In this document: piece by piece, positions 44,653 through 62,993 of the stretch | Position numbering within the stretch: position 1 is the stretch's first letter | Layout of the letters: every line of letters begins with the position of its first letter | Assembly: GCA_945889005.1 (NCBI GenBank) | Contig: CAMDBI010000011.1 | Coordinates: 1,379 to 65,378 of the forward strand | Source of the DNA: Bacteroides fragilis | Lineage (GTDB): Bacteria; Bacteroidota; Bacteroidia; Bacteroidales; DTGW01 | Direction: 5' to 3' | Length of the DNA: 64,000 nucleotides | Translations under genes and position numbers: made by a program | The notes under the pieces: model-generated | The model's database searches: none | What the model saw: only the letters and a program-made list of their open reading frames with translations | Told to the model about the DNA's origin: nothing

Positions 44653-44738
44653 GTTCAAATATACAAAAATCAGACAATGATAGGATGGTTCTGGATTTTT
44701 TTTGTGCTTAACTAATGTATTACCCATGAATATAAAAA

Positions 44739-45566
44739 TCATTTCTTTGCCTCATCGATACTAAAGCGCTCCTGAATATAATTGATAATTTCGTTGGCGG
44801 TCGATTCGATGGGCTTGTTGGTAACATCGATGGTTGTGAAGCCTCCTCGCTCGAAAACGTTATTGGCATAGGCTAGCTCCATACGCACAATGCTCGAATC
44901 GAGATAAGAAGTTGAGTCGAAATTGCCCATTTTCGTGACTCGTTCTTTTCGTTGGGCTATGAGGCTTCCCGAATAGATCGACAGTCCAAAAACCCTACGA
45001 GGATCGACCTTAAACAAGTCTTCGGGTGGTGGAACTTCTCGTACCAAAGGCACATTGGCTACTTTCCAGCCCAACATGGCCATATATACGCTCAAAGGCG
45101 TTTTCCCTGCACGCGAAACTCCGGTCAATACAATGTCGGCCTGAAATATTTTGTCGGTATTCATACCATCGTCGACCGAAAGGGTAAATTCTATGGCTGC
45201 AATTCTATCGAAATATTCCTGATTCATTTTCCGAAATAAACCCGGCACCTGTATGGGTTCTGTATTGAGCCTGTTTGACAGGTAATCGCTCAATGGACCC
45301 ATAAGGTCGAAGCTTGGTACATCGTATTCCTGGCAATATTTATTTAGGGCCGATCGAATCTGCTTGTTGACCATGGTATGAACAATAATGCCATTATTCC
45401 CCTTGGCTTTAAGTACAACTCGAAGCACTTCTTCTTCTGTATGCACATCTGATTCGATGTTGGTAGGGATTTTGAAATCGGGAAACTGTACCAACAAAGC
45501 CTTTAGTACGTGTTCGCCTGCCAAACCCTTGCCCCCCGATACATTGTAAATGTGAGGAATATCCAT
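44739..45566 (-). CDS. PEP synthase / pyruvate-phosphate dikinase regulatory kinase-pyrophosphorylase (PpsR/PDRP, DUF299)
   Basis: From ATG 45566 (MDIPHIYNVSGG..) with the P-loop ..TGVSRAGKTPLSVYMA... The length of about 275 aa is typical. Confidence 0.85.
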   Translation of the reverse strand: MDIPHIYNVSGGKGLAGEHVLKALLVQFPDFKIPTNIESDVHTEEEVLRVVLKAKGNNGIIVHTMVNKQIRSALNKYCQEYDVPSFDLMGPLSDYLSNRLNTEPIQVPGLFRKMNQEYFDRIAAIEFTLSVDDGMNTDKIFQADIVLTGVSRAGKTPLSVYMAMLGWKVANVPLVREVPPPEDLFKVDPRRVFGLSIYSGSLIAQRKERVTKMGNFDSTSYLDSSIVRMELAYANNVFERGGFTTIDVTNKPIESTANEIINYIQERFSIDEAKK

Positions 45567-48372: not shown

Positions 48373-49282
48373 ATACTTTTTAAATTCAATACTTTATACT
48401 TTTAAATCAAAAATATTACGAAAAAATGTTCCATTTATAGCAGGGGTGGTCATTAACAACGATTGTAATTTGAAGTGTAGTCAATGTTTTCTGCAAAACG
48501 AAAAAAGAACAACTTTGTCCATTCAGCAAATTTCGGACGGATTAGACCAATTGTATTCGCGAGGCATACGTTCTGTTGCCATTACAGGTGGCGAACCATT
48601 TATGTGGCGCGATGGCAATCTGAGGCTCAACAATGTTTTCAATTTGATTTATAAAAAAGGGTTTATGGTATCGAGTGTATATACCAATGGAACATTTGCT
48701 ATAAACACCTCTGCAGACAATGTATTTGTAAGCATCGACGGTACCGAAGCAACCACCAACAAGCTTAGGGGGCCAGTTTTTCATACAGTTATCAATAACA
48801 TCAAAGCATCGAAACACCCCAAGATTTTTATCAATTACACCATCAACAGCTTAAACTACACTGAAATCGAACAGTTTTGCCAATTTATAAAAACAATTCC
48901 ACAGATAAAAGGTGTGTTTTTTTATTTCTATACACCATATAATTCGATAGACGAACTCTATCTTTCGCGCGATGAAAGGGTTGAAATAGCTCGAAAAATT
49001 ATAGCTTTGAAAAAAATATATAAAATATTGAACTCACATGCTGCCCTCAACGATTTCATAAACAATAACTGGAGTCGTCCCTCTGATGTTTGTTTGGTAT
49101 ATTCCGACAAAGCCGAGATTGTTCGTTGTTGTCGTACTATTAAAAACCAAGAAGCATGCGACAACTGTGGATATTTGGGATACCTCGAAGTAATCGATGT
49201 TACAAAATTTAAACTCAGTGCAGTATGGGAAGCATTCAATTATTTGCCCAACAAAAGTTCGAGGGAAAGTTATGTTAATTAG
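48359..49282 (+). CDS. radical SAM protein
   Basis: 307 aa with CX3CX2C (NNDCNLKCSQCF), GGEPF, and a C-terminal Cys cluster (CCRTIKNQEACDNCGY). Confidence 0.8.
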   Translation: MLIAKYFLNSILYTFKSKILRKNVPFIAGVVINNDCNLKCSQCFLQNEKRTTLSIQQISDGLDQLYSRGIRSVAITGGEPFMWRDGNLRLNNVFNLIYKKGFMVSSVYTNGTFAINTSADNVFVSIDGTEATTNKLRGPVFHTVINNIKASKHPKIFINYTINSLNYTEIEQFCQFIKTIPQIKGVFFYFYTPYNSIDELYLSRDERVEIARKIIALKKIYKILNSHAALNDFINNNWSRPSDVCLVYSDKAEIVRCCRTIKNQEACDNCGYLGYLEVIDVTKFKLSAVWEAFNYLPNKSSRESYVN

Positions 49283-49973
49283 TGCAATTACAAAGGCAAT
49301 TCGCTGCTACTATGCCGGCAACAATAGTCAGTTTGCATTCAAAAAACACCTCAAACCCAAGATTGACAAAAACGATATTGATTCCATTCATTTATATATT
49401 CATGTTCCATTTTGTTCGCATTGCTGTCCATACTGCCCATACAATAAAATTCAGGTCGATACAAATTTGGTCGAATTGTTCTTCAAAGCACTGGAAACCG
49501 AGATTGAACTTTATCACAATACGGTGGGTTGTATCAATGTTTCGTCGATTTACTTTGGAGGAGGTTCTCCGGCATTATTCCCCGGAGAAGTCGCATCGGT
49601 AATTGAGCAATTACAAAAACTTTTTAAGGTAAATGGCGAAATATGTATTGAAATAAACCCCAACGATTGTACATTCGAAAATTTACAAATACTCAAAAAT
49701 GCAGGCATAAAAACAGTAAGTGTGGGCGTACAATCGTTTCAGGATATCAATCTGAATATAATTGGCAGGTCGTACAATGCACAGGTAGCCGAAAAGGCAG
49801 TTGAAACAGTATGTAGCATCTTCGATTCGGTCAATATCGATCTTATGTTTGCATTGCCAACTCAGGACAATGAAAGTCTGTTGTACGATTTGTCGAAAGC
49901 CATTGGTTTCGGGGTCAATCAGATTACAACCTACCCCCTCTTTACATTTCCATACACGAAAGTTAGCAACTAG
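49272..49973 (+). pseudogene. 5' part of an interrupted HemN-like (class C) radical SAM gene
   Basis: From ATG 49272: HVPFCSHCCPYCPY (CX3CX2C), ..YFGGGSP.., ..VSVGVQSF.., ..NIDLMFALPTQ.., ..QITTYPLFTFPYTKV. A stop follows 3 codons later. The C-terminal half is found at 61581-62165. Confidence 0.75.
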
Positions 49974-50105
49974 CGGGGAGCATTTTCCGTCATTTAACAA
50001 AAAAAATACCCGACGCACAAAGCAACAGTTTGGCAGCCCTTCCCTGCAAGCTTCGCTTCACTGCCAAACACTTGCTTTTTTCCTGCCGCTCCTGCTTCGT
50101 AGATA
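49974..50105. other. GC-rich structured module at the left end of the island
   Basis: Stem GTTTGGCAG / CTGCCAAAC (9 bp) encloses the 24-nt loop CCCTTCCCTGCAAGCTTCGCTTCA. The GC content looks far above the surroundings. Confidence 0.5.
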
Positions 50106-50209
50106 GTTTTGTGCATCTTGATAAATTTTAAAAATCGAAATTAAAGTTTAACTGATTATAATATAGAATTTTAAGAGTGATTTTTATTAACTAAATTATT
50201 AATAATTAT

Positions 50210-50587
50210 ATGTCTTCTGTTTTTTTAAAAAATGAAACCACTATTCGAAAATTTGATATTCAAGAATTGCTTTTTATTACATGTGACGATCATTGCCTTT
50301 CTTTTCATTCAGTAAATAATGTATTTCATACAACTGGATGTATTTGCGATGTTTTAAAAGCTCTTCCAAGCTATTTTGTCTTAATAAATCGCAATACCGT
50401 TATCAATCTTAAACATATTAAAGAGATTAATTTGCCTCTAAGAAGATTAATCTTACAAAACGATACAACACACACAATTTCAAGTCGTAAGATGAGTTCT
50501 TTATTAAAGATGTTTTGTTTTCCAAAAAGCAAGTTAATAATACATACGTTTAATGACGATAATTTCACGTTCACGAAGTGTAACTGA
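50210..50587 (+). CDS. standalone LytTR-type DNA-binding protein
   Basis: 125 aa with ..IQELLFITCDDHCLSFHS.. ..LPSYFVLINRNTVINLKHIKEIN.. ..HTISSRK.. matching the LytTR domain pattern. No receiver domain is present. Confidence 0.72.
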   Translation: MSSVFLKNETTIRKFDIQELLFITCDDHCLSFHSVNNVFHTTGCICDVLKALPSYFVLINRNTVINLKHIKEINLPLRRLILQNDTTHTISSRKMSSLLKMFCFPKSKLIIHTFNDDNFTFTKCN

Positions 50588-50636
50588 CATTTGCTTAAAG
50601 CAATTACTTATTTTCATTTATTTGTATTTTAAATTT

Positions 50637-50979
50637 TAAAAATGTGCCAGCATAAATCTTATAAATTTATTAACACTTTAAAATGGAGGAATTATTATGA
50701 AGAATTTATTTAGTAAGAAAATTTCAAAAGTCAAAGAAGACACACAAGCAAACTGGATTTGTCCATGTTTTGGAGGTTGCACAGGTAATTGTTTTGGAGC
50801 TTGTTATAGTTGTATTGGTGGCTGTAAAGGTGGTTGCTCTAGTTGTAGCGGGACTTGTATGGCTTGTGCAAATGCATGTAATATTAATTGCTTTGTTAGT
50901 ACATACTAATAGTTAGAATAAATGTTAAATATTTGAGAATATTCAAATTGTTTTTTTATAATTAGCTGGCACATTTTTA
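50637..50979. repeat. perfect 15-bp inverted repeat bracketing the precursor gene
   Basis: TAAAAATGTGCCAGC (50637-50651) and GCTGGCACATTTTTA (50965-50979) are exact reverse complements. They enclose the SD site, the ORF and its stop. Confidence 0.85.
50697..50909 (+). CDS. RiPP precursor peptide, 13-Cys CXXX-repeat core
   Basis: 70 aa. Leader MKNLFSKKISKVKEDTQANWI is followed by core CPCFGGCTGNCFGACYSCIGGCKGGCSSCSGTCMACANACNINCFVSTY. A GGAGG lies 7 nt upstream of the ATG. It sits next to exporter, peptidase and radical SAM genes. Confidence 0.8.
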   Translation: MKNLFSKKISKVKEDTQANWICPCFGGCTGNCFGACYSCIGGCKGGCSSCSGTCMACANACNINCFVSTY

Positions 50980-51223
50980 TTGTTTACCTTTAAATTAAGA
51001 TGAAAAAAATGCTTTTTATGCATAACGTTTTGCCAAAACAAGAAAATATGGTTATAAAGTTTGGTGTATTATGGTTTTAAAATATGATAAACTATTTAAG
51101 ATTGACTATTTTCTAATGACTATTAGAAATGTAATCAAATAGAATTAATTCTGAAAGCGTATTTGTAAACTTTAGTATTAAATTTTCTTGGTATATAATT
51201 TGTAATTTTAATTAACTTTTTAA

Positions 51224-53005
51224 ATGAGTTTGAATCTTTTTTCAAAGAATGATACTATTCTTCTTAAACGTGCGGCAAGTTACGTTAAACCATACAAAGC
51301 ACTTTTTTTAATTGCATTTTTTTGCATTTTGTGTGGTGTTGGAATTTCTATGGCACAACCACTTATTTGGGCAAAACTAATTACCAGTTTATTTGATCAA
51401 AGTTACTCAGGGCTTTTGTTCATAATACGTTATATGCTCTTGTTGTTTACTCTGAGTATAATTATTGGCTTTGCGCAATCATTCTTTTTTTCAACATTAA
51501 ATGAAAGAATGATTTATGATATAAAGCGGGATATGTTTGCCAAAGTACTGAATCTGCCAGTCAAAGCATTTGACGATATGAGAACTGGTGAATTTATGTC
51601 TAGGTTAAATAACGATGCCGGAGTAATTGCACATGTCATTACAAGTCAGTTGTTAAATAGTATTATTGATGTTTTAAGAGTTATAATTGTCGGTGTAATA
51701 ATGTTCAGCATAAGCGTAAAACTGTCTTTGGTGATACTTTTTGCCTTCCCTTTTAATTATGTTATTTTTTTCTATTTTGGCAAGATAATTCGCAAAAGAC
51801 AGGCAGCTATTGCAAAAATTAATGATACTTATTTTAGCATTGTTCAGGAATCAGTAAGTGGTGTCAGAGAAATAAAATCTTTAGGGATTAAACACAATGC
51901 CAATGAAAGATTCCTGAAAGTTACAAATATGCTAAAAAATAAAAATATTAAATTAAGCATTATAGGAAATGTTTCGAATTCATCATCACAAGTAGTCAAG
52001 TATGTTACTGAAATTATCGCCATATTTTTTGGTTTTTATTTAATAAAGATAGGGGAAATAAAAATTGAAATGTTCATTGCATTTATGGGGTATACAGAAA
52101 TGTTTAGTGCATCTTTAATGGCATTGACAAGTCTTAATTCAAATATTCAAGAGGCACTTGTTTCAGTTGGCAGAATATTTGGGCTTCTCGATAATCTAAA
52201 CTATTCACAGGAAAAATATGGCAATAGCAATGAACTTGCTATAAACGGCGAAATCTTTTTTGATAATGTTAGCTTTGGTTATGATACTAAAATGGAGGTA
52301 TTAAAGGATGTATCCTTTTCTTTAAAACCGAATAGAAAAATAGCATTAGTTGGAGGAAGTGGTGTAGGGAAAACAACTATAATTAATTTACTTCTGAAAT
52401 TTTATGAACCATCAAAAGGTGCAATTTGTATTGATGGTTATAATATTAGCGATTTCAATGAAGATACATTAAGAACTTTAATATCAGTAGTAAGGCAGGA
52501 ACCTTTTCTTTTTAATATGTCCATTAAAGACAATCTCCTATTAGCAAATTCATTTGCGACTATGGAAGAACTCATCAATGCCTGCACTTTTGCTTATATT
52601 CACGACTTTATCATGTTGTTACCTATGGGTTATGATACTATTGTAGGAGAAAGGGGCGTAAATTTTTCTGGTGGACAAAAACAACGATTCGCAATTGCTC
52701 GAGCTGTCTTAAAGAAGTCAAAAATTATTTTATTTGATGAAGCTACCTCAGCATTGGATAACGAATCTCAATATGCCATAAAAAAAGCAATCGACAAACT
52801 AGCAAAAGAAAAAACACTTTTAATTATTGCTCACAGGTTATTTACTATAATAGATGCAGATGAGATTATTGTTATGGACAATGGAGGAATAGTAGGTGTT
52901 GGTTCTCATAGTCTACTTTTAGAAAACAATGCCATTTATGCAAGGCTTTATAAGGCAGAGGTCGAAACAATAAGTATGAACCATCAAAATACTGTCGTTT
53001 CATGA
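51224..53005 (+). CDS. ABC exporter, fused permease-ATPase (type I exporter), no C39 peptidase domain
   Basis: 593 aa with a 6-TM N-half, Walker A GGSGVGKTT, signature SGGQKQR and Walker B IILFDEATSALD. Confidence 0.9.
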   Translation: MSLNLFSKNDTILLKRAASYVKPYKALFLIAFFCILCGVGISMAQPLIWAKLITSLFDQSYSGLLFIIRYMLLLFTLSIIIGFAQSFFFSTLNERMIYDIKRDMFAKVLNLPVKAFDDMRTGEFMSRLNNDAGVIAHVITSQLLNSIIDVLRVIIVGVIMFSISVKLSLVILFAFPFNYVIFFYFGKIIRKRQAAIAKINDTYFSIVQESVSGVREIKSLGIKHNANERFLKVTNMLKNKNIKLSIIGNVSNSSSQVVKYVTEIIAIFFGFYLIKIGEIKIEMFIAFMGYTEMFSASLMALTSLNSNIQEALVSVGRIFGLLDNLNYSQEKYGNSNELAINGEIFFDNVSFGYDTKMEVLKDVSFSLKPNRKIALVGGSGVGKTTIINLLLKFYEPSKGAICIDGYNISDFNEDTLRTLISVVRQEPFLFNMSIKDNLLLANSFATMEELINACTFAYIHDFIMLLPMGYDTIVGERGVNFSGGQKQRFAIARAVLKKSKIILFDEATSALDNESQYAIKKAIDKLAKEKTLLIIAHRLFTIIDADEIIVMDNGGIVGVGSHSLLLENNAIYARLYKAEVETISMNHQNTVVS

Positions 53006-53709
53006 GTTTAGTAGATGAAAACAGACAAAAGGTAAGAGTGGTTGTAATTGATAGTGGGATTGACTCATCTGTTTCTACTCTAAAACACAATATAATTAAA
53101 TCAACAGGTTTCTGGGTAAATTCTGTTGGTTTGATTGGTGAAGTTTCTAATAAACAAATTAATAGTTTACATGGCACTTCAGTTGCGTTAGTAATAAAGG
53201 ATATTTGTAACAATGTAGAATTTGTTAGTTTTAATATTTTAAATGAAAGGTTAAAAACCGATAGCAGAATAATGATTTACGCAATGAATGAGGCTTTGAG
53301 AGAGAAGCCTAATATTATTCATTTGAGTTTAGGAACAAGTAATTGGAGATATTACTTTTATATAAAAAAAATTGTTAATGAGGCCAAGAAAAATAATATT
53401 ATTATTGTTGCAGCCTATAACAACAAAGGAATATTTCCATCTTATCCAGCTTCAATAAGGGGTGTTGTTGGAGTAAAGAGCTTATTCAACAATTCCGGGA
53501 AAAACTTTTTCTATTATAAATACGGTCGTTACTATGCACCCAATTCACTAAACGAGATTGAAGGTTCTTCAGAATTGATAAATGCTGTTGAAATTAAAGG
53601 GACAAGTATTTCAGCCGCTTATATTACTGGACATATTGCTAATGTAATATTTAATCAAGACATTCATAATTATAATGATATTTTAAAAAGTTTAAAAACG
53701 AGAACTTAA
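53002..53709 (+). CDS. minimal S8 (subtilisin-like) serine peptidase, no signal peptide
   Basis: 235 aa with Asp (VVVIDSGID), His (SLHGTSVA), Asn (AAYNN) and Ser (KGTSISAAYITGH). Its ATG overlaps the ABC stop (ATGA). Confidence 0.8.
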   Translation: MSLVDENRQKVRVVVIDSGIDSSVSTLKHNIIKSTGFWVNSVGLIGEVSNKQINSLHGTSVALVIKDICNNVEFVSFNILNERLKTDSRIMIYAMNEALREKPNIIHLSLGTSNWRYYFYIKKIVNEAKKNNIIIVAAYNNKGIFPSYPASIRGVVGVKSLFNNSGKNFFYYKYGRYYAPNSLNEIEGSSELINAVEIKGTSISAAYITGHIANVIFNQDIHNYNDILKSLKTRT

Positions 53710-53721
53710 AATAAATCTAAA

Positions 53722-55887
53722 ATGACTGAGACAAGAAGTATTAAAATGGGAAACCTTAATAAGGAATGGATGAACGGTGCAGCAAAAAATATAACATTTT
53801 GTGTTACCGAAGATTGTAATCTTGCCTGTAAATATTGTTATATGACAGGCAAAAACGGCACTGTTAAAATGAATTTCGAAACAGCAAAAAAGGCTGTTGA
53901 TTTTATTCTTAATAGCAATAGTGACGAATTTAAACAAAAAGCTGTTATATTTGATTTTATTGGTGGTGAGCCGTTTTTGGAAATTGAACTTATTGATAAA
54001 GTTTCAGATTATATTAAAATCCAAATGTTTGAAATGGATCACAAATGGTTTGATTATTATAGGTTCAGTTTTTCATCCAACGGTTTGTTATATGGGACAA
54101 AAAAAGTACAAGAGTATATTCAAAAGAATCGAGGGCATATTTCCATTGGACTAAGTGTTGATGGAAATAAGTATAAGCATGATTTACAACGCATAAAAAA
54201 GGATGGTTCAGGCTCTTATGATGATGTAGTTAAAAATGTTCCTTTGTGGTTAGAACAATTTCCTTTTGCTACTACTAAGGCTACATTTTCTCACGAAGAT
54301 ATACCATATTTAAAAGATAGTATCATCAGTCTGTGGAACTTGGGCTTAAAAGAAATTCCTGCCAATGTTGTTTTTGAAGATGTCTGGCATGAAGGAGATG
54401 ATGTTATTTTTGAGAACCAATTGAAAGAATTGGCAGATTATATTATTTCTAATGAGTTATGGTGGGAACATTCAGTTAGATTTTTTGATCCCAAAACAGG
54501 TACCCCTCTTTCGCAAAGTGATTTAAATAAAAATTATTGTGGCTCAGGAAAAATGTTATCTATAGATTGCAATGGAGATCTCTTCCCATGCATAAGGTTT
54601 TGCGATATAAGTTTAAACAACCGTGAACCAATAATAATTGGAAATATTGAAAGTGGTATTGATGAGGATAAAGTACGTCCTTTTAAACTGCTTTCATATA
54701 AAAATCAAAGCCCAGAAGAATGTATGAACTGTCAGGTTGCATCAGGGTGTGCTTGGTGTACTGGAGCAAATTACGATTTTGCTGATTCAGATACCATCTA
54801 CCAAAGAGCAATATTTATTTGCAAAATGCATAAAGCGAATGTTCGTGCTAATGAATATTTTTGGAATAAACTTAAAGAACAATTAGGCTATATGCCTCAT
54901 GAAAGGCAAACATGGATTGAAATGAATAAAGTAGAAAATAAATATCTGCAAATAATGACTTCCGATCAAATAATACCCCATTGTAATTACAGAAATTGGC
55001 ATAATAAGAACAATAAAATGGATGATGCAATTTTTGAGAAAAGTATAAAGTTTGCTAAGGAAAATGGCTTTGTTGTGGTTTTTTTTGAAGAGTTTGAAAA
55101 TAAAAGGATTGCAGCTAAAAATCTAAGTGGTATTAATGTAGTTGATGGCAATTCAACTAAATATATCGAAGGTAACAACCTTTATATATTTGACAATTTC
55201 GTAAATGATAATATGGAAAATGTTCAAAACTTGATTCTTCGAATTCATGCTGAAAATATTTCCAATATATATAACTATATTCAAAAACTAACCAATAAGT
55301 CTACAAGAATAAATCTTCAATTGGAATCCATTGAGCGATGGACAGATATCGAATTGCAAATATATGAATCACAATTAAGCCAATTATCTGATTTGGTATT
55401 TGAATCTTACAAAAACAATAATCCTATTGAAATAAATGTTCTAACTGATATAATGGAATTAGAAAGTATTAATGAATGTGGGGCAGGTATTTCTTCTTTT
55501 GCTGTTGCTCCGAATGGTAAAATATATCTATGTCCAGCTTTTTATTTTGAAAACCCGGAAAATTCAATTGGAAGTATAGATGAGGGTATTTCCATAATAA
55601 ATAGTCATATGTTATATGCTGAAAATTCTCCAATTTGTTCAAAATGCGATGCCTTTCATTGTAATAGATGTAAATTTTTGAATAAGAAACGAACCAACGA
55701 AATTAATACCCCTTCAAAGATGCAATGTATTATTAGTCATATTGAAAGAAATAAATCTAGAGAACTTCAATTGCGTTTAAAGGAATGGGGTTTTAATGAT
55801 TTCAAAAATTTCATTAAAGAAATCGATTATCTAGACCCTTTAGACCACCTATTATTAACTCACGATAGCGATGGACGTTGTATATAA
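53722..55887 (+). CDS. radical SAM / SPASM peptide maturase with a second C-terminal SPASM-like Cys-rich domain
   Basis: 721 aa with CX3CX2C (EDCNLACKYCY) and GGEPF. The first SPASM region is CGSGKMLSIDCNGDLFPC..CMNCQVASGCAWC. The C-terminal half repeats the pattern as CGAGISSFAVAPNGKIYLCP..CSKCDAFHCNRC..C. Confidence 0.88.
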   Translation: MTETRSIKMGNLNKEWMNGAAKNITFCVTEDCNLACKYCYMTGKNGTVKMNFETAKKAVDFILNSNSDEFKQKAVIFDFIGGEPFLEIELIDKVSDYIKIQMFEMDHKWFDYYRFSFSSNGLLYGTKKVQEYIQKNRGHISIGLSVDGNKYKHDLQRIKKDGSGSYDDVVKNVPLWLEQFPFATTKATFSHEDIPYLKDSIISLWNLGLKEIPANVVFEDVWHEGDDVIFENQLKELADYIISNELWWEHSVRFFDPKTGTPLSQSDLNKNYCGSGKMLSIDCNGDLFPCIRFCDISLNNREPIIIGNIESGIDEDKVRPFKLLSYKNQSPEECMNCQVASGCAWCTGANYDFADSDTIYQRAIFICKMHKANVRANEYFWNKLKEQLGYMPHERQTWIEMNKVENKYLQIMTSDQIIPHCNYRNWHNKNNKMDDAIFEKSIKFAKENGFVVVFFEEFENKRIAAKNLSGINVVDGNSTKYIEGNNLYIFDNFVNDNMENVQNLILRIHAENISNIYNYIQKLTNKSTRINLQLESIERWTDIELQIYESQLSQLSDLVFESYKNNNPIEINVLTDIMELESINECGAGISSFAVAPNGKIYLCPAFYFENPENSIGSIDEGISIINSHMLYAENSPICSKCDAFHCNRCKFLNKKRTNEINTPSKMQCIISHIERNKSRELQLRLKEWGFNDFKNFIKEIDYLDPLDHLLLTHDSDGRCI

Positions 55888-55915
55888 CAAAAGTTTAATT
55901 TTAAAAACAAACAAA

Positions 55916-56209
55916 ATGAATAAAGAAAAAGTAGGTTTTGTAACTGAAGAAGAAAAAGAAGAAATAAGGGTTCTTCACGAAAGGAAATTGGCATTGAATG
56001 AACTTATTCCTTCTCTTGGAACTGGATTGTTATCCGATGACAAAAGAAACGAAATATACGAAAAGGTTTTACAAGACATGGGTAAAACTAATTCATTATT
56101 TCAGGCATGGTGGAATAGCAAAAGTGTTAAATACAACTGGAAATCAATGGAAAATGGTAATTGGTCGATTGATTTTGATACAAATGAAATTTTTTTAGTT
56201 ACAAACTAA
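55916..56209 (+). CDS. small Trp-rich accessory protein of the RiPP cassette
   Basis: 97 aa from ATG 55916 (MNKEKVGFVTEEEKEE.. ..FQAWWNSKSVKYNWKSMENGNWSIDF..). The ORF-track start at 55871 overlaps the radical SAM gene end. Function unknown. Confidence 0.5.
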   Translation: MNKEKVGFVTEEEKEEIRVLHERKLALNELIPSLGTGLLSDDKRNEIYEKVLQDMGKTNSLFQAWWNSKSVKYNWKSMENGNWSIDFDTNEIFLVTN

Positions 56210-56235
56210 AATGAAATTTTAAATTATTTGAGTAT

Positions 56236-56286
56236 GTATACTTTTTTAATAATATTATCGTTATTAGAAAAGTATACTCGTTTTTT
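56236..56286 (+). terminator. Rho-independent terminator closing the RiPP core operon
   Basis: Stem GTATACTTTT (56236-56245) / AAAAGTATAC (56268-56277) is followed by TTTTTT (56281-56286). Confidence 0.5.
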
Positions 56287-56317
56287 ATGCTTTTATAGAA
56301 CGTTATTTTATTAATTT

Positions 56318-59218
56318 ATGAGAATTTGGTTATTACTTTTTTTATTCTTCTATTGTAATATGTCCATTATTTCTCAGTCTGATTCTATAAAATCAAATAG
56401 AAATTATATTATTCACGGATATGTTACCGATAGCGAAACGGGGGAGCATTTGAATGGTGTTGTAATTACTGAGGAAAATACCAATGTGAGCACAATTACC
56501 AATAATTATGGCTTTTATAGTATTAAACTTTCTGAAAGTCAGATCAAATTAAATATTTCATATATTGGATATAGGAATGAAATACAAGAACAAAGTCTTT
56601 TAAAAAATACCGAACTAAATATTCCATTGTTGCCTTTGCCTATTGAAATTAAAGAAGTTATTATAACCGATAAAAATACCCTGAAACAAGTTGAAAGTTC
56701 ACAAATGGGTGTAAACGAGCTGCAAATGAAAAATCTCAAAAGCATTCCGGTACTTGCAGGAGAAAACGATATTATTAAAACAATGCAATTATTACCGGGA
56801 GTTCAGCAAGGGTCTGAAGGTTCTTCTTCGCTTTATATCAGAGGAGGCAGTTCAGACCAAAACCTTATTTTGCTTGATGAGGCTTCGGTTTATAATATCA
56901 ATCATTTATTTGGGTTTATGTCTACATTTAATGATGATGCTATTCAAAGTGCAACAGTTTTAAAAGGTGGGATTCCTGCCCGCTATGGTGGGCGACTTTC
57001 TTCTGTTGTAGATGTTCGTATGAAAGAAGGAAATAATCAGAACGTTGAAAGTCAAGGTTCAATAGGAACAATTGCATCAAGGTTTACTATCTCTGGGCCA
57101 ATTGTAAATAATAAAACATCTTTTATGTTCTCGGCTCGAAGATCTTATTTTGATTTACTTACTCGACCTTTATTAAAACTCATGGAATTGGTAAATGGAG
57201 AACAAGTAAAGTCGTTTTATTATTTTCAAGATTATAATCTTAAAGTCAACCATATATTTTCATCAAACAGCCGTCTGTTTTTTAGCATTTATACTGGAAA
57301 CGACGTAATAAGTGATTATATGAAAACGAATCATAATAATCGGCCTTTTTTAGAAACCTATGAATTTAATTGGGGCAACATTACTGCAACAACTCGTTGG
57401 AACTATAAATTTGGTGACAGATTATTCAGCAATTTCACATTGATTTATAGCCAATATATGAATAATGCTCATTTTAATAATTCATGGACAGATACTTCTC
57501 ATATTAACTATAAAGATTACGGAAATTTTAAATCGGGAATTCGAGATTATTCAGCTAAGTCCGATTTTTATTTTTATATTAATTCAAACCATACGTTTCG
57601 TTTTGGTTCCCAAAGCACTTTACATATATTTTATCCCGGTAATCTATTTGAGGGTTCTTATATTCAGAACTTCAATAATACAAAAACAGATACTTCTATA
57701 AATCTAAAAGCGATTAATCTTGCTGAAAATGAATTGTACCTCGAAGATGAAATGAAAATTGGTAATAAATGGAGAGCCAATTTAGGCCTGAGGTATTGTC
57801 AAGCAACAGTTGAAAACAAAACATATAATTCAATACAGCCTCGTTTAAGTCTTTCTTACTTAATTGCTGAGAATTGGTCAGTCAAAGCTGCATTGTGTAA
57901 TATGAACCAAAATATGAACCTTTTAACTGGCTCATCTTCAAACGGACTTCCAATGGATTTGTGGATTCCAACTACAGGTATTTTAAAGCCTCAAAGTTCT
58001 AAACAGTATTCAGTTGGTTCGGTTTTATTATTCAACAGCAGTATTGAATTTATTACGGAATTATTCTATAAAAACATGCAAAATGTTCTTGATTACCGTG
58101 ATGGCACAAGCTATGTTTTTGCTGATAAAGAATGGCAAAGTAAGATTGTTCAAGGTAATGGCATTGCCTATGGTGCTGAATTTATGGCAGAAAAGAAAAC
58201 AGGCAATACATTTGGTTGGTTTAACTATACTTGGAGCAAAAGTTTGCGACAATTTAATGAAATAGACAATGGTCAGAGGTTTCCTTACCAATATCATCGT
58301 ACACACAATATTAACTTTATGGTAGTTCACCGTTTTTCGGAAAAGTTTGAAATTGGTGCTATTTGGGTATTTTCATCCGGTCGTTTTTTAACAGTGAATA
58401 ACCAGAAATATTCTTCGTATCTTGAACCCAGAAGCAATGTTGAAACATATACTAATCGTAGTAATTTTGAAGCTCCTGCATATCATCGGTTGGATGTAAA
58501 TTTGAGATTTTCGAAACAAAAGAAGTGGGGAGTCAGAACATGGAGTATAGGTTGTTACAACTTGTACAACCGTCAGAATCCCTCAATTGTTTATGTTTCC
58601 GATAATAAAGTGCACCAATTGGCTATTATGCCTATTATACCGTCAGTGTCATATAATTATAAATTTGGAATGAAGCGAGTTTCTTCAATAAAGCCTACGT
58701 TTGATATCCCTGTAGAAAGCACCCCAATTGTTGAAAAAAAAGATACTTTTTTAAAAATCATTGATAATAAAATTCAGATATTAAATACCAATAAAGGAAA
58801 TAGAATAGTAGGTTTAAATTTTAATATCAGTTTATCAAGTACCAGTAAAAGCATTTTGTTCAATTTAACCTCGGCCAAGTTCGTATTAAATAATTTGGCA
58901 ATAGGTTCTTCTTTAGGTTATACTTACAATAAATATTTTGTTAACGATATTGAAAACACTATACAAACAATAAATTATGGCTTTTTGAGTAGATATTACA
59001 TTGGCAAATACAAAATCAAACCATTTGTTCAAATTATACCGGGTTTAAAAATTACTAGTCAGGAAACACTAAGTTTTAATAAATTCTTAAATAATGGGCT
59101 AGGCGTAGCTTGTTTTTTAGCTGATAGAATAGCTCTCGAAGCATTGTTGAGCAACGATTATAATCAGAATGCAATTTCATTCCGAATAGGCTTTCAAATA
59201 TATTTTTCTAAAAAATAA
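56318..59218 (+). CDS. TonB-dependent receptor (CarboxypepD_reg-plug-barrel) with extra ~183-aa C-terminal beta-barrel-like domain
   Basis: 966 aa. A signal peptide is followed by ..YIIHGYVTDSETGEHLNGVVI.., a plug and a barrel ending ..SVSYNYKF at residue ~783. The frame then continues for 183 aa of alternating beta-strand-like sequence ending ..RIGFQIYFSKK. Confidence 0.82.
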   Translation: MRIWLLLFLFFYCNMSIISQSDSIKSNRNYIIHGYVTDSETGEHLNGVVITEENTNVSTITNNYGFYSIKLSESQIKLNISYIGYRNEIQEQSLLKNTELNIPLLPLPIEIKEVIITDKNTLKQVESSQMGVNELQMKNLKSIPVLAGENDIIKTMQLLPGVQQGSEGSSSLYIRGGSSDQNLILLDEASVYNINHLFGFMSTFNDDAIQSATVLKGGIPARYGGRLSSVVDVRMKEGNNQNVESQGSIGTIASRFTISGPIVNNKTSFMFSARRSYFDLLTRPLLKLMELVNGEQVKSFYYFQDYNLKVNHIFSSNSRLFFSIYTGNDVISDYMKTNHNNRPFLETYEFNWGNITATTRWNYKFGDRLFSNFTLIYSQYMNNAHFNNSWTDTSHINYKDYGNFKSGIRDYSAKSDFYFYINSNHTFRFGSQSTLHIFYPGNLFEGSYIQNFNNTKTDTSINLKAINLAENELYLEDEMKIGNKWRANLGLRYCQATVENKTYNSIQPRLSLSYLIAENWSVKAALCNMNQNMNLLTGSSSNGLPMDLWIPTTGILKPQSSKQYSVGSVLLFNSSIEFITELFYKNMQNVLDYRDGTSYVFADKEWQSKIVQGNGIAYGAEFMAEKKTGNTFGWFNYTWSKSLRQFNEIDNGQRFPYQYHRTHNINFMVVHRFSEKFEIGAIWVFSSGRFLTVNNQKYSSYLEPRSNVETYTNRSNFEAPAYHRLDVNLRFSKQKKWGVRTWSIGCYNLYNRQNPSIVYVSDNKVHQLAIMPIIPSVSYNYKFGMKRVSSIKPTFDIPVESTPIVEKKDTFLKIIDNKIQILNTNKGNRIVGLNFNISLSSTSKSILFNLTSAKFVLNNLAIGSSLGYTYNKYFVNDIENTIQTINYGFLSRYYIGKYKIKPFVQIIPGLKITSQETLSFNKFLNNGLGVACFLADRIALEALLSNDYNQNAISFRIGFQIYFSKK

Positions 59219-59225
59219 ATAATAA

Positions 59226-60068
59226 ATGACGAAACACATTCTAAACATAATTTATATTATTTTCTTTCCAGCTTTATATTCTTGCGATAAAGAAATAGAC
59301 ACTAATATTTCAGGTGGGAATGATGAATATGTTGTTAATGCGACCTTATGCTCCGATAGTATTGTAAGTATGGTTGTATACAATACTAGTAATATACTTG
59401 ATAATTCTCAGCCATTATTTGTGAATTCCGTTTCTGCTTTACTTTATGAGGGCAGAAGTATTATAGATACTTTTATTTACAATGGAAGTGGTAGATATTT
59501 GTGTAAAATTAAACCTGTGTCAAATAAACCATATTCATTAAAAATTAAAATTAATGGACATTCTATAACTTCAACAGATACAATTCCAAAAAAGGTTAGA
59601 ATTCAGAGTGTCGATACTTTTTTAGTTGGCAATAAGTTGTTTTGTTCTGTTAATATTACCGACCCAATTAATACCGATAATTATTATTTATTTACAATGA
59701 ATTCTGCTCAAAAATATAGTCCCGAAAAGTTTATTAAGCAGGAGTTTACATGTAATGACCCAATGATAACTAACGCTGATGTGGTTGACAGTCTTGATGG
59801 TGGTAATATTATTTTCTTTCGTGACACTCAATTTAAAGGTAAATCCCATGCATTGTTTATATCTTTACCATATCAAAAAGAAAAAGTTTTAAATTTTCAG
59901 CTTTGGTCTATTAGTCATGCTTTTTATAATTATTGCCATTCAATAGTTATTAATAGACAGTTCAAATCATCATTATTTAATGAGAAAGTAAAAGTCCAAA
60001 GTAATATTATAGGTGGAAAAGGTATATTTGCAGCATACTCAGTAGATACATTGCAAGTTATATTATAG
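59226..60068 (+). CDS. DUF4249-like lipoprotein (usual partner of this receptor class)
   Basis: 280 aa with lipobox ALYSC. It lies immediately downstream of the receptor. The family call rests on context and layout. Confidence 0.65.
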   Translation: MTKHILNIIYIIFFPALYSCDKEIDTNISGGNDEYVVNATLCSDSIVSMVVYNTSNILDNSQPLFVNSVSALLYEGRSIIDTFIYNGSGRYLCKIKPVSNKPYSLKIKINGHSITSTDTIPKKVRIQSVDTFLVGNKLFCSVNITDPINTDNYYLFTMNSAQKYSPEKFIKQEFTCNDPMITNADVVDSLDGGNIIFFRDTQFKGKSHALFISLPYQKEKVLNFQLWSISHAFYNYCHSIVINRQFKSSLFNEKVKVQSNIIGGKGIFAAYSVDTLQVIL

Positions 60069-60159
60069 TATATTAATTTTATGAAATAATATTCAAAAAT
60101 AATAATGATTTTTTTTATTTTTATGCTTTCATAAACCGTTAAACTAAAACTAACTCATT

Positions 60160-60894
60160 ATGTCGAATACCCGCAATTACAATTACAAAGATGTTGAAAT
60201 GCTTGTAACATCGAAAACTATTGCCGAAAATTTCAAAACAAATCTTACAGAATTATCATCAACTCGTTCCGATTGGACCGAACAGTATGCAACCGATTTA
60301 ATTTCACGTATCGACAATGCAATCGACAATTATCTGGGAACCGATGCCAAAAAGGAACTTCGAAATGCTACTGCAAACTTAGGAAGTATTCAAGTCCCTG
60401 CCAAAAGAGACATTTCGTTTTTCAAAACACAAATTGACGATGACTTTAAAAAAGACACTGCCAAGCGTGAAGAAATACTTAAAACCCTTGGTTTTACAAA
60501 GCATTTAAAAGACGTTCAAAAAGGCAAACACGAAGCACTTATACAGCTTCTGTATACCTTCAAAACAAACATGACCGACGATTTGCGTAATTCAATCATT
60601 GCTAATGGTGTAAATGCAACTTTAATAGACAACATTATTGGATATGCCGATGCTTTCAAACAAGCAAGTGTAAAACAAGAAACTCTTAAAGAATCAACCA
60701 AAGAAATTACCAAAGAAGTAGCCGACACCTTTAATGCCATTTACGACGAGATTATCGGACTTTGCAAAAAAGCATCGAACTATTATCAATACGAACCACT
60801 CAAGAAAGAACAATTTACTTTTAGTAAAGTAATAGACAACTTGGGAGCAACTCGTAAGATAGCCGAAAAGGCAGTTGCACAACCAGCAAACTAA
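60160..60894 (+). CDS. hypothetical helical protein
   Basis: 244 aa with no signal peptide and no recognisable motif. It is the last ORF of the island. Confidence 0.5.
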   Translation: MSNTRNYNYKDVEMLVTSKTIAENFKTNLTELSSTRSDWTEQYATDLISRIDNAIDNYLGTDAKKELRNATANLGSIQVPAKRDISFFKTQIDDDFKKDTAKREEILKTLGFTKHLKDVQKGKHEALIQLLYTFKTNMTDDLRNSIIANGVNATLIDNIIGYADAFKQASVKQETLKESTKEITKEVADTFNAIYDEIIGLCKKASNYYQYEPLKKEQFTFSKVIDNLGATRKIAEKAVAQPAN

Positions 60895-60922
60895 TCTCTT
60901 TTGATAGCAATCGAATAATATT

Positions 60923-60957
60923 AGAACTTGTCAGATTCGTCGAATTTGGCAAGTTCT
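60923..60957 (+). terminator. long near-perfect hairpin after the last island ORF
   Basis: AGAACTTGTCAGATTCG-T-CGAATTTGGCAAGTTCT forms about 17 pairs counting G-U. The U-tract is weak (TTTA). Confidence 0.35.
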
Positions 60958-60985
60958 TTATACTACTTGTCAATATATAAATTAA

Positions 60986-61245
60986 ACATAGGACAAGTAT
61001 CAATAAAGATAGGAGTCCAATTGAATAAGATTTATGTCATAAATATAACATAGGAGTTAATTTATAATAGTTAGGACAAACAACGAATTAGATAGGAGTT
61101 AATTTTTATTACATAGGAGATTGTTAATTGTTTGTAGACCTTAATAAATAGAAGATAGATATTAATTCGATAAACATAGGAATAAACTCCTATAACATAG
61201 GACAATTAAAGATTAACATAGGATAGATAAAGAATAACATAGGAC
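60986..61245 (+). repeat. array of 9-bp ACATAGGA(N) boxes phased every ~21 bp
   Basis: ACATAGGA starts at 60986, 61048, 61111, 61174, 61195, 61216 and 61237. Variants (GATAGGAG/GTTAGGAC) start at 61008, 61070 and 61091. One inverted copy (CTCCTAT) lies at 61187-61193. The last four boxes are spaced exactly 21 bp apart. Confidence 0.85.
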
Positions 61246-61260
61246 ACAATAAAAAATAAA

Positions 61261-61420
61261 AAGGGAGAGTGTCACAAGCCCTCGCACGCCGTCCCCTCTG
61301 CTGTGAGGCACATGCCGCTTTTCCCGCAAGGCAAACGCACTTTCCAAAAAGCGGCAAGAGCCTCCAGCCCGTCCCTCGCCACCCACAGTAGCAGCTTTTT
61401 CACTTTTAATCGTCATTAAA
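61261..61420. other. GC-rich structured module at the right end of the island (candidate ncRNA or recombination structure)
   Basis: Stem GCCGCTTTT / AAAAGCGGC (9-10 bp) encloses a 24-nt loop CCCGCAAGGCAAACGCACTTTCCA. Flanking direct repeats of CCGTCCC(C)TC and CCCTCGC are present. The GC content looks far above the surroundings. Confidence 0.5.
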
Positions 61421-61580
61421 ATAAAAAAAACAAAAAATGTAGTACAAATCGCCAGTTGCTAACAGCGGGTAAAGTCAATAGCGGGTTTAGTGGGTTATTC
61501 AGCTCCTCGTCACGCAGGTAGTTTTATCTTGTTGGATAGGATTGTATCTCCGTATTCCGCTACTGACCTTACCCGCAAAC

Positions 61581-62165
61581 GTTGGGAATTATAAAAAAAT
61601 AAAGCGTGTAAAAATGCCTAATTTAAGTACCCGAAAAAAACAATACTACAGCATTTACGATACATTAATAACCCAAGGTTACGGTCAAGTATCGGTTTGG
61701 AGTTTCAAAAAAGGTGAAGGTGTTAAATATTCCTCTGTAACACGCGATGGATATTTGGGATTTGGAGCAGGTGCAGGCACACACCTCAATAATGCTTATC
61801 TTTTAAATACTTTCCCAGTTAAGTCCTATATTGAAAAGCTCGATAGCCGAGAATTCCCAACAGCTCTAAAATTTGCAATGTTGCCCTATATGAATAATTT
61901 GTTTTGGCTTTATTGGAGATTTTACGACACTCGAATACCTGTTTCAGATTTTAATTCGCGATTTGGAAAAGTAGGAAAAATAAAACGACTATTATTCCTG
62001 ATGAGAATTTTGGGTATGCTTACGAAAACCGAAAACGAATATTTACTTACCCGCAAAGGCTCTTTTTGGCTACACTTGGCTCAAAATTACTTTTCACTTC
62101 AGTATATAAACAAAATTTGGTCGGTTTGCCTTACCAACAATTATCCCAAAGAAATAAAATTCTAA
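61581..62165 (+). pseudogene. 3' part of the interrupted HemN-like radical SAM gene (HemN_C-like half)
   Basis: The frame is open from 61542. From Val14 (61581) it reads VGNYKKIKRVKMPNLSTRKKQYYSIYDTLITQGYGQVSVWSFKK..GFGAGAGTHL... This is the region that follows the radical SAM core in HemN/HemW-like proteins. Confidence 0.75.
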
Positions 62166-62273
62166 ATTTTTAGTTTATTTACAGTTCAAAAAAATTATAT
62201 CTTCGAGGTCTAATTAGATTCTCTTATTTCATTAGAAAATTAACGGTCGAATTATAATTTTTAAACAATAGCC

Positions 62274-62993
62274 ATGCTAAGAACTGTATTTTTTTGGGTT
62301 TCGTTTTGGTTAATTCTAATTTTTTCCATTGTTTTTTTTGTGCCATTGTACTTCCTTAAACTGTTTAAGACACAGAAAGAAGTAAAACAATTTGTTTATA
62401 AGTTAAGCAAAAGTTGGGCAAAAACCGTAATACGATTCAATGGCGTAAGTTATACCGCTTACGGCCGAGAAAATATACCTGCGCCCCACTCAAAATTGGT
62501 TGTAGTATCGAACCATCAAGGGAGTTTCGATATAGCCATCTATTTGGCGGACCTGCCCTTCTCTATTGGATATATAGCCAAATACGAATTGAAAAAGTTA
62601 CCAATCATTAGTGTTTGGATGAAAGAACTCGATTGCATTTTTATTAAACGAACAAAACTTAGAGAAACGTCGCAAAGAATTAACGAACATATTCGCAAAA
62701 AAGACAAGAATCCTATATTTATATTCCCAGAAGGCACCCGCAGCAAAAGTTCTCAAATAGGAGCATTCAAACCAGGAACACTCAAACTACTTTTTAACGA
62801 AAGAGCCGATATATTTCCTGTTACGGTAAATGGCAGCTACAAGGTAATGGAGATCAACAACAGAGTAAGAAGTGCGCATGTCGAAGTGTTTTACCACCCT
62901 GTAATTCATTGCGCCGATTACAGGTTGGACGATTTTGAAACGTTTATTAAAGATTTACACCGTATTATTGCTGAGCCATTGGTTTCTAAATAA
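62274..62993 (+). CDS. 1-acyl-sn-glycerol-3-phosphate acyltransferase-like (LPLAT/PlsC family)
   Basis: 239 aa with an N-terminal TM helix, the HX4D motif NHQGSFD and FPEGTRS. Confidence 0.85.
   Translation: MLRTVFFWVSFWLILIFSIVFFVPLYFLKLFKTQKEVKQFVYKLSKSWAKTVIRFNGVSYTAYGRENIPAPHSKLVVVSNHQGSFDIAIYLADLPFSIGYIAKYELKKLPIISVWMKELDCIFIKRTKLRETSQRINEHIRKKDKNPIFIFPEGTRSKSSQIGAFKPGTLKLLFNERADIFPVTVNGSYKVMEINNRVRSAHVEVFYHPVIHCADYRLDDFETFIKDLHRIIAEPLVSK

Follow-up and report, generated by a model that had tools for sequence, protein, structure and literature searches.

How does an 11.6-kb block of foreign DNA that encodes no recombinase come to lie, to the base, inside a chromosomal gene? The question is raised by contig CAMDBI010000011.1 of the Bacteroides fragilis assembly GCA_945889005.1, of which 64,000 bp were analysed (hereafter the window; positions are those of the window unless a related locus is named). 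A HemN-family radical SAM gene is split there by an island of 11,619 bp (49965-61583). The island is best read as an intact, non-autonomous cassette of a hairpin-ended family of Bacteroidota, integron-like in its logic, that was probably inserted at a secondary GTT by a tyrosine recombinase acting in trans, the likeliest source being an IS91-family element that carries such an enzyme; we put the probability of this reading at roughly 0.58. In the sequences below a slash marks a crossover or cassette boundary. The split is defined by four features:

49272-49964, plus strand: 5' fragment (231 codons) of the interrupted HemN-family radical SAM gene, reading ...QITTYPLFTFPYTKV (...FPYTKV)
49962-49964, plus strand: GTT of the left junction, with a putative crossover at G/TT; an identical GTT stands at every cassette junction in related loci
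61577-61583, plus strand: spacer AAAC followed by the GTT of the right junction (61581-61583)
61584-62165, plus strand: 3' fragment of the interrupted gene, with 193 codons and the stop codon, starting GNYKKIKRVKMP...

The 5' part continues into the island for two codons (S, N) before a stop at 49971-49973, giving the truncated product of 233 aa that is called in public assemblies (P0015), and the open frame at 61542-62165 carries VGNYKKIKRVKMP from 61581. Joining 49964 to 61584 yields a 424-aa HemN-family protein that aligns across the junction, with zero gaps, to its best intact homologues (P0001, P0003-P0007 and P0009, all from metagenomes and 424 aa long, 66-72% identical at 100% coverage), and the NCBIfam model NF006385 (coproporphyrinogen III oxidase family) covers joined residues 17-401 unbroken, spanning junction residue 231. 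The clean in-frame split reported in a first-pass annotation of this DNA is thereby confirmed, and its count of seven matches between the 11-mers at the two junctions is correct on direct reading. Its label of a HemN_C-like half for the 3' part has to be corrected: PF04055 matches the joined protein but PF06969 (HemN_C) does not in a Pfam scan, and the C-terminal half is recognised by whole-protein HemN-family models only. An intact version of the gene, which that annotation expected to exist elsewhere, is represented by the 424-aa homologues, but no intact allele of the same species was found in the protein collection, where the best intact homologue is 72% identical. Because GTT is present at both junctions, the boundary is uncertain by up to 3 nt; the host reading frame places it within GTT. 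The putative target site in the HemN-family gene reads ACGAAAG/TTGGGAAT. A group I or group II intron or an intein-like element was considered and rejected on boundary rules, on size and on the lack of a ribozyme match: within the 3 nt, no boundary combines a terminal U in the exon with a terminal G in the intron, no GUGYG...AY pattern occurs on either strand, and the Rfam intron models gave no match even at E<=5.

The ends of the island carry the following conserved non-coding modules:

49965-49975, plus strand: left-end box R' (AGCAACTAGCG), the inverted complement of R'' at 61450-61460 in 10 of 11 positions
50012-50082, plus strand: CR5, a conserved left-end hairpin with arms at 50019-50036 and 50061-50078, a 24-nt loop containing the boxes AGCCCNTCCC and TTCGC, and a T-run at 50076-50081
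61289-61375, minus strand: CR3, a conserved structured motif consisting of box A CCGTCCCCTCTGCTGTG, AGGCACAT, a covarying hairpin (arms at 61305-61322 and 61347-61364), AAGAGCCTC and box B CAGCCCGTCCC; the bottom strand folds better
61450-61463, plus strand: R'' box (CGCCAGTTGCTAAC), with AAC at 61461-61463; the family consensus is GCCAG(N3-5)YAAC
61465-61576, minus strand: terminal hairpin, with L'' arm at 61465-61484, a 72-nt loop and L' arm at 61557-61576, forming a 20-bp stem

Read from left to right, the right end consists of R'' (..AAC), spacer, L'', loop, L', spacer and R' (G/TT..), a site of 134 nt (61450-61583) with an L stem of 20 bp and an R stem of 14 nt that is formed with the island's own left end. 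The R'' box (CGCCAGTTGCTAAC, 61450-61463) is the reverse complement of the left junction GTTAGCAACTAGCG (49962-49975) at 10 of 11 positions plus the AAC/GTT triplets, against only 4 of 11 for the adjacent flank, and occurrences of the 14-mer GTTAGCAACTRGCG in the window are limited to the left junction and the R'' box. If the island were circularised, pairing of R'' with R' would lengthen the terminal hairpin to approximately 35 bp. Folded as single-stranded DNA, the bottom strand of the reconstituted circular junction reaches -30.8 kcal/mol (z=-6.2, equalled in 0 of 200 shuffles) and the top strand -25.1 kcal/mol (z=-3.4). The terminal hairpin alone forms 18 Watson-Crick and two G.T pairs on the bottom strand, the top-strand equivalents of the latter two being A.C mismatches; its unpaired spacer is asymmetric (A versus AAAC), and no bulged base interrupts the L stem. 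The boxes in the CR5 loop (AGCCCNTCCC and CCGTCCCTTCGCTG) are the same two boxes that flank the CR3 hairpin, and CR5 itself looks like a terminator. No Rfam family was found at the gathering threshold over the whole window, and both ends gave only chance-level matches at E<=5.

The island is compositionally foreign, as the first-pass annotation had judged by eye: its GC content is 30.7% (36.1% in the remaining window, 34.7 to 38.6% in windows of equal size), and its tetranucleotide distance of 0.218 is twice that of any other window (0.066-0.109). The earlier statement that no recombinase is on board also stands, because Pfam and NCBIfam scans of all island open reading frames (ORFs) detected no recombinase, integrase or transposase; precomputed Pfam lists contain none for the rest of the 64-kb window. 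The contig in ENA matches the window identically, and two Logan contigs (run ERR3719163) span the left and the right junction, respectively, with 0 mismatches, so that both junctions are present in independent assemblies and an assembly chimera is unlikely. The Logan contigs break at 50047, in the CR5 loop, and at 61557, the first base of the L' arm, rather than at the junctions; breaks within the conserved ends point to repeats shared with other cassettes, not to a mixture of filled and empty sites, and hint that the sample contains further cassettes whose ends are similar. A further copy of this particular island was not found by similarity searches: the right end has no BLAST match among plasmids and phages, the 2.9 million viral contigs of IMG/VR contain 0 matches to the CR3 pattern and 0 to the island's own right end, and the closest relatives of the last gene of the island, which encodes a 244-aa protein (P0121 and P0122), sit in unrelated contexts and therefore represent no second island copy.

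A search of genome contigs with the CR3 pattern, in which counts are of the matches listed, found CR3 in at least 119 contigs, nearly all from Bacteroidota and including cultured isolates; the hosts among the matches listed are Bacteroidales, Marinilabiliaceae, Prolixibacteraceae, Cytophagales, Chitinophagales and Flavobacteriales, and also Ignavibacteria. The cultured hosts include Marinilabilia salmonicolor JCM 21150, Rapidithrix thailandica JCM 23209 and Cloacibacterium normanense. A few matches are located on contigs binned as Clostridiales, Sedimentibacter, Gudongella, Syntrophomonas and Dojkabacteria (L016, L030, L071, L083 and L093), and are either mis-binned mobile DNA or the result of transfer beyond Bacteroidota. 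CR3 is approximately 90-110 nt long, with invariant flanks and compensatory changes in 10 of 16 predicted stem pairs; it is absent from Rfam 15, and the sequences compared (L016-L134 and the window) could represent either a structured RNA not yet catalogued or an element of single-stranded DNA. Approximately 200 nt downstream of CR3 follow a GCCAG(N3-5)YAAC box, a stem of 17-27 bp with a loop of 32-137 nt (most often 54-76 nt), and (A/C)CGTT, and the AAC/GTT triplets with the G/TT junction hold at 40 related sites; the hairpin scanner, which accepts ungapped stems without bulges, detects approximately 40% of sites only. An upstream GTT/ of which the next 11 nt are complementary to R'' in at least nine positions was identified at 13 of the 31 loci with enough upstream sequence, versus 1 of 59 controls. 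This GTT is usually preceded by the hairpin-CCGTT of a previous unit, and the left ends so matched bound complete cassettes of 2-7.5 kb. Between R'' and the adjacent downstream flank there is no complementarity beyond chance (mean 3.08 of 11 positions versus 3.00 for permuted pairs). CR5 lies at the same offset, 60-100 nt inside the left end, in 12 of 12 complete cassettes examined and in the window. Since the island possesses every part found in the family, it is a full family member.

The relatives also reveal mobility. In L004-L009, a homologue of the 244-aa gene ends a unit of 7.86 kb and is followed by 21-nt phased repeats, CR3, R'', the hairpin and ...CCGTT/; each of these copies is preceded by the hairpin-CCGTT of another unit, and thus the units form tandem arrays. 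Two of them (L006 and L007) are an identical cassette of 7,855 bp at two loci of one 5.3-Mb contig, with 0 mismatches, unrelated flanks, and boundaries exactly at the two GTTs (CCGTT/). As this duplicated cassette encodes no recombinase, recent mobility in trans is directly visible. Cassettes elsewhere in the family carry restriction-modification, McrBC-like, RhuM and bacteriocin cargo. The view that the island in the window is a relic no longer mobile, or an artefact (the decayed fragment of a prophage or of an integrative and conjugative element, a product of illegitimate recombination, or an assembly chimera), draws on its lack of a mobility gene and on the single copy found, but it is largely refuted, and survives as a very slim chance, in the face of two complete ends with the family architecture, a base-exact insertion, junctions recovered in independent assemblies, the absence of CR3 from viral contigs and the two identical copies of a recombinase-less sister cassette. 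The first-pass annotation had offered three options for the missing recombinase. Decay is unsupported, given ends that are complete, agree with the family-wide architecture and bear boxes complementary at 10 of 11 positions; mobilisation in trans is the option that the evidence favours; and an unrecognised mechanism is apt insofar as the family is seemingly undescribed, but less so insofar as its ends resemble the logic of integron attC sites.

That resemblance extends to the way the two strands fold. Of 22 distinct terminal hairpins, all but one (21) have their best score on the bottom strand, as defined by the orientation of the cargo genes, their 385 Watson-Crick pairs being accompanied by 62 G.T pairs on the bottom strand and four on the top strand, and the CR3 stems are biased in the same way (167 G.T pairs on the bottom strand versus 31 on the top). 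This folding statistic is consistent with a bottom strand that is the folded and functional one, as in integron attC, and antisense RNA would fit it too. The GC-rich ends (CR3 and the terminal hairpin, bottom strand) might accordingly encode a structured non-coding RNA needed by the element, for example a guide or scaffold for a trans-acting enzyme, the DNA hairpin being secondary. The compensatory changes in 10 of 16 CR3 stem pairs, G.U-type pairs that are allowed on the bottom strand only in both CR3 and the terminal hairpin, and the folding of the bottom strand of 61240-61590 as RNA (z=-3.8) would all suit such an RNA. It is nevertheless considered highly improbable, because the partner of R'' is the left end, which is 11.6 kb away in the integrated island and adjacent only in a DNA circle, and because a promoter scan of the ends gave no promoter evidence, no Rfam family matches them and no RNA-guided protein is associated with them.

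Candidates for the enzyme may be sought among the genes near CR3. Clustering of the ORFs in approximately 120 CR3 loci identified only one kind of recurrent mobility gene, namely pairs of an IS91-family transposase (Pfam domains Y2_Tnp and Zn_Tnp_IS91) and a tyrosine recombinase of approximately 300 aa (278-304 aa; Phage_integrase and SAM_4), hereafter called IS91-YR units. They occur in 9-14 of the approximately 120 loci, and each IS91 unit seen also bears the integron-like recombinase. The closest solved relative of the recombinase is the integron integrase of Vibrio cholerae (2a3v, E 8.6e-40), with XerA, XerC and XerD ranking lower. The recombinases associated with IS91 have been described as an integron-like subgroup without the extra insertion of IntI (Smyshlyaev et al., bioRxiv 10.1101/542381), and from that description, from their length and from their split alignment to 2a3v we infer that those found here lack the IntI-specific insertion. 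An IS91-YR unit starts (G)TTGAACTAAAYC... (GTT/GAACTAAAYC) and ends with GTTCAAC, a hairpin, a spacer and G/TT, and therefore its circular junction would give the canonical R boxes GTTCAAC (RYYYAAC) and GTTGAAC (GTTRRRY). All of the 18 starts recognised in 14 loci follow a hairpin arm and spacer; some lie directly after CR3 cassettes (L109, L117 and L129) and others on the bottom strand of R'' boxes (L023, L037 and L119), and the order in L117 is IS91-YR, cassette, mini-cassette, IS91-YR. The IS91-YR units are thus placed at the same hairpin-spacer-G/TT junctions as the cassettes, and share with them both junction chemistry and arrays.

One locus (L092, minus strand, 4426, 4773 and 5120) has three tandem 347-bp units that contain nothing of IS91-YR but its 5' start and its hairpin-bearing 3' end, mini-cassettes that look like miniature inverted-repeat transposable elements (MITEs). 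Another (L051, 461-3265) has two tandem N-extended integron-like tyrosine recombinases of 440 and 371 aa directly upstream of a cassette start (..GCTAGTT/AGGTGCAAGGC), which is preceded by a short simple hairpin where a long one would be usual. These recombinases were tried as an attI-type platform and rejected: 80 metagenomic loci with their relatives had 0 CR3 and one CR5, and AAC...GTT hairpins were not in excess downstream of these relatives (3 of 50, versus 3 of 86 in controls).

The IS91-YR units could alternatively act through their transposase alone. An IS91-type HUH (Y2) transposase, unaided by a tyrosine recombinase, would mobilise the cassette in trans by a rolling-circle mechanism, beginning with a nick after the left GTT and displacement of a strand, stopping at the 3' hairpin-CGTT as at the 'ter' of Helitrons and IS91, and ending with insertion after another GTT; arrays would come from insertion beside existing ends or from read-through of the terminator. 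IS91-family Y2 transposases are the sole transposases that recur near CR3 cassettes, cassettes and IS91-YR units stand head to tail in L117, and a GTT on both sides without target duplication, with a hairpin a few nucleotides before the 3' end, agrees with this mode of transfer. Canonical IS91 inserts beside GTTC or CTTG. At the split gene only the shared GTT is duplicated and a 3' hairpin is present; the target reads AAAGTT/GGG, not GTTC, and is compatible with a target of the IS91 kind without being diagnostic of one. We regard a transposase-only route as unlikely, however, because the 11-14 nt of complementarity between R'' and the left end give duplex boxes around an unpaired spacer, a geometry that belongs to tyrosine recombinases and is not needed by HUH nucleases, and because every IS91 unit seen also bears an integron-like recombinase.

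A second alternative dispenses with any element-encoded enzyme and has the chromosomal Xer-type recombinases of the host act on the folded single-stranded site, as in the CTX-type integrative mobile elements exploiting Xer (IMEX). CTX phage presents a forked hairpin to XerCD, and the hairpin of the island likewise has two duplex arms parted by an unpaired spacer; no recombinase is present in the island or in most related loci, and a XerD-like gene lies near one array (L028). The targets, however, are diverse (GTT sites, cassette ends, an ORF) instead of a single dif site, and the family co-occurs with IS91-YR units of like junction logic, so that host Xer enzymes make a very improbable agent.

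The preferred reading, an integron-like tyrosine recombinase supplied in trans, favoured over a HUH nuclease by the long complementarity of R'' and R' across the circle, would operate as follows. A circular and probably single-stranded form of the cassette would arise transiently, the HUH protein of an IS91 element possibly providing the single strand; R'' and R' would pair, and the terminal hairpin would become an attC-like folded site on the bottom strand. A tyrosine recombinase, of which the likeliest source is an IS91-family element with both a HUH Y2 transposase and an integron-like tyrosine recombinase, would then exchange strands between the folded site and a 5'-G/TT-3' target, and replication would resolve the product. 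The target in the window would be a secondary GTT inside the HemN-family gene instead of another cassette end, by analogy with integron recombination of attC with attG; insertion of integron cassettes at genomic 5'-GWT-3' sites has experimental precedent (bioRxiv 10.1101/2022.09.11.507474). The predicted circle junction is ...CCCGCAAACG/TTAGCAACTAGCG... (longer form ...CTGACCTTACCCGCAAACG/TTAGCAACTAGCGGGGAGC...). Precise excision would restore the HemN-family gene, with the predicted site ACGAAAG/TTGGGAAT (longer form ...CCATACACGAAAG/TTGGGAATTATAAAAAAA...).

Several observations weigh against this reading. The window contains no recombinase of any kind, and the enzyme proposed to act here in trans is deduced from related loci, where IS91-YR lies within 4 kb of only approximately 10% of CR3 occurrences. 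The IS91-YR units are themselves without CR3 and CR5, which may therefore be recognised by something else. A dedicated integrase platform was not found among the relatives of the L051 recombinases in 80 metagenome loci. The bottom-strand bias in G.T pairs equally fits an RNA antisense to the cargo. The site itself also deviates from integron attC: the boxes in the window (TGCTAAC and GTTAGCA) depart from the consensus (RYYYAAC and GTTRRRY) at two of the four degenerate positions in each box; the stems have no extrahelical bases, their asymmetry being achieved by G.T versus A.C pairs instead; and the R and L stems, at 14 and 20 bp, are much longer than those of attC (approximately 7).

The cargo of the island consists of nine genes:

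50210-50587, plus strand: stand-alone LytTR DNA-binding protein, 125 aa (PF04397, E 2e-12)
50697-50909, plus strand: Cys-rich 70-aa precursor of a CXXX-repeat ribosomally synthesised and post-translationally modified peptide (RiPP) (TIGR04118, 33.4 bits, slightly below the cut-off of 35)
51224-53005, plus strand: ABC exporter, permease plus ATPase (PF00664 and PF00005)
53002-53709, plus strand: subtilisin-like S8 peptidase (PF00082; NF049966, QhpE-like)
53722-55887, plus strand: radical SAM/SPASM CXXX-repeat peptide maturase, 721 aa (TIGR04115, 555.7 bits, and TIGR04119, 279.4 bits, both exceeding their cut-offs)
55871-56209, plus strand: CXXX-repeat modification system protein (TIGR04116, 89.6 bits, exceeding its cut-off)
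56318-59218, plus strand: TonB-dependent receptor (domain matches to CarboxypepD_reg, plug and barrel)
59226-60068, plus strand: DUF4249 protein, directly 3' of the receptor gene (PF14054)
60160-60894, plus strand: conserved 244-aa all-helical protein with no assigned function, a frequent 3' passenger of cassettes

On the strength of these profile matches, in which the maturase and its TIGR04116 partner exceed their cut-offs and the precursor falls slightly short (33.4 versus 35), the cargo is a CXXX-repeat RiPP (bacteriocin-like) system with an exporter, a protease, a regulator and a TonB-dependent receptor pair. The nine genes, regulator included, and the conserved non-coding modules together occupy 11.6 kb. 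Behind the last gene lies a further feature:

60985-61245, plus strand: array in which A(C/G)ATAGGA recurs nine times at a 21-nt phase, each time on the plus strand

The 244-aa protein has more than 400 homologues at 62-76% identity and is present in multiple copies in Bacteroidales genomes; its AlphaFold2 model is an all-helical bundle (predicted local distance difference test score 84) with no significant match in the PDB. Its gene is always trailed by phased direct repeats of 21 nt (or 42 nt), as in the window (60160-61245), L004 (10001-11020), L010 (10001-11010), L011 (10001-11120) and L013 (3270-4270), and the core of the repeat varies by lineage, being ATAGGA in the window and L004, AAGGGA in L010 and L013, and ATAGAAG in L011, which suggests that the protein and its repeats are a co-evolving pair of protein and site. 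The module is found outside cassettes too, for example within a polysaccharide-utilisation locus in L011. As a mobility gene the 244-aa gene was rejected, because L011 has the gene and its repeats in the absence of cassette ends, because cassettes exist without the gene (L001), and because its product is a helical bundle without a PDB match.

The surroundings of the island include several features of lesser consequence. A search around the host operon brought up no decayed cassette ends upstream of 47797. A weak, AT-rich candidate for an AAC...GTT hairpin (62136-62311), which reaches from the last part of the HemN-like gene into the gene that follows it, scores 14.5-15, at background level, and is probably due to chance. 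A metagenomic relative (L001, 113-3475) has the three genes of the operon intact (for a 131-aa protein, a radical SAM protein and the 424-aa HemN-like protein), and there they are the cargo of a cassette of the family, which has a GTT/ left end and CR5 on one side and CR3 and hairpin-AAAACGTT/ on the other. R'' of this cassette matches the cassette's own left end at only 4 of 11 positions. The counterpart of this operon in the window has an ordinary chromosomal context and no cassette ends. Approximately 5 kb upstream of the split operon is a HEPN plus nucleotidyltransferase (MNT-type) pair, a typical toxin-antitoxin module (43955-44742, minus strand).

A full-text literature search found no description of this cassette architecture; a failed search is not proof of novelty, but the hairpin-ended cassettes are apparently a widespread, undescribed family. 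The architecture provides a simple annotation signature by which otherwise invisible mobile islands can be delimited. If the interpretation is correct, it explains the shuffling of defence and competition genes in Bacteroidota, supplies a substrate on which the integron-like recombinases of IS91 elements, so far uncharacterised, can be tested, adds CR3 as a new conserved structured motif beyond Rfam, and implies that cassettes can knock out chromosomal genes, perhaps reversibly.

Several known systems share some of these traits. The intervening elements of bacteria (skin in sigK of B. subtilis and the cyanobacterial nifD element) are also of several kilobases and lie precisely within an ORF that is restored when its flanks are joined, but they encode their own recombinase and are excised developmentally, whereas no such gene or programme is evident for the island. 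Helitrons, ISCR elements and REPIN-RAYT systems (hairpins formed by repetitive extragenic palindromes and their associated tyrosine transposases) resemble the cassettes in causing no target duplication, in having a hairpin shortly before the 3' end, in the mobilisation in trans of non-autonomous hairpin elements by a single HUH gene, and in the capture of host genes; they differ in having neither the long end-to-end complementarity nor the unpaired-spacer geometry. IMEX of the CTX type likewise lack a recombinase of their own and use as their site a single strand folded into a hairpin with two duplex arms, but they target the chromosomal dif via XerCD, in contrast to the many GTT sites and cassette ends used here. 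The IS91-YR units share with the cassettes the hairpin-spacer-G/TT junction, the inverted-box logic of R'' and R' (GTTCAAC and GTTGAAC), common arrays, and the formation of tandem MITE-like derivatives (L092); however, the island encodes neither of their proteins, its box sequences differ, and it has CR3 and CR5. The HUH Y2 transposase with a Zn-binding domain that characterises IS91/ISCR is present only in related loci, and neither in the island nor in the window.

The closest parallel is with the integrons, the standard example of gene-cassette capture, of which these cassettes may be the counterpart in Bacteroidota, where IntegronFinder surveys have reported almost no integrons or clusters of attC sites lacking an integrase (CALINs). 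In both systems the promoter-distal end is an imperfect palindrome of the form R''-L''...L'-R' with AAC/GTT triplets and crossover at G/TT, the 5' end of the cassette itself supplies the R' half so that the site is complete in the circle only, the bottom strand folds better with cargo on the top strand, the units lie in tandem, defence and competition functions are frequent in their cargo, and insertion into the GTT of an ordinary gene occurs. The 134-nt site of the island falls within the length range of attC (approximately 57-141 nt), and the attC R-box consensus fits some relatives (GCCTAAC and GTTAGGC) as well as the IS91-YR units (GTTCAAC and GTTGAAC). In contrast to integrons, no platform of adjacent intI, attI and Pc was found in the window or in the approximately 120 related loci; an integron cassette is usually one promoterless ORF, whereas the island has nine genes and the cassettes of the family, 2-12 kb long, hold several genes, regulators of their own included; and the additional conserved modules CR5 and CR3 flank the cassette site. 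On account of the misfit of the R boxes, the lack of extrahelical bases, the longer stems, the multi-gene content and the absence of IntI and attI, the cassettes are not filed as integron cassettes. A tentative proposal, to which we give somewhat less than an even chance, is that an integron analogue without a platform exists across the phylum Bacteroidota, and that in it multi-gene cassettes bearing a bottom-strand attC-like hairpin and CR3/CR5 are copied into G/TT sites, both those at each other's ends and those in ordinary genes, by the integron-like recombinases borne on IS91 elements, with the HUH protein possibly making the single-stranded DNA. Such an analogue, if real, would be a new class of cassette mobility, and could be an evolutionary link between IS91-type elements and integrons.

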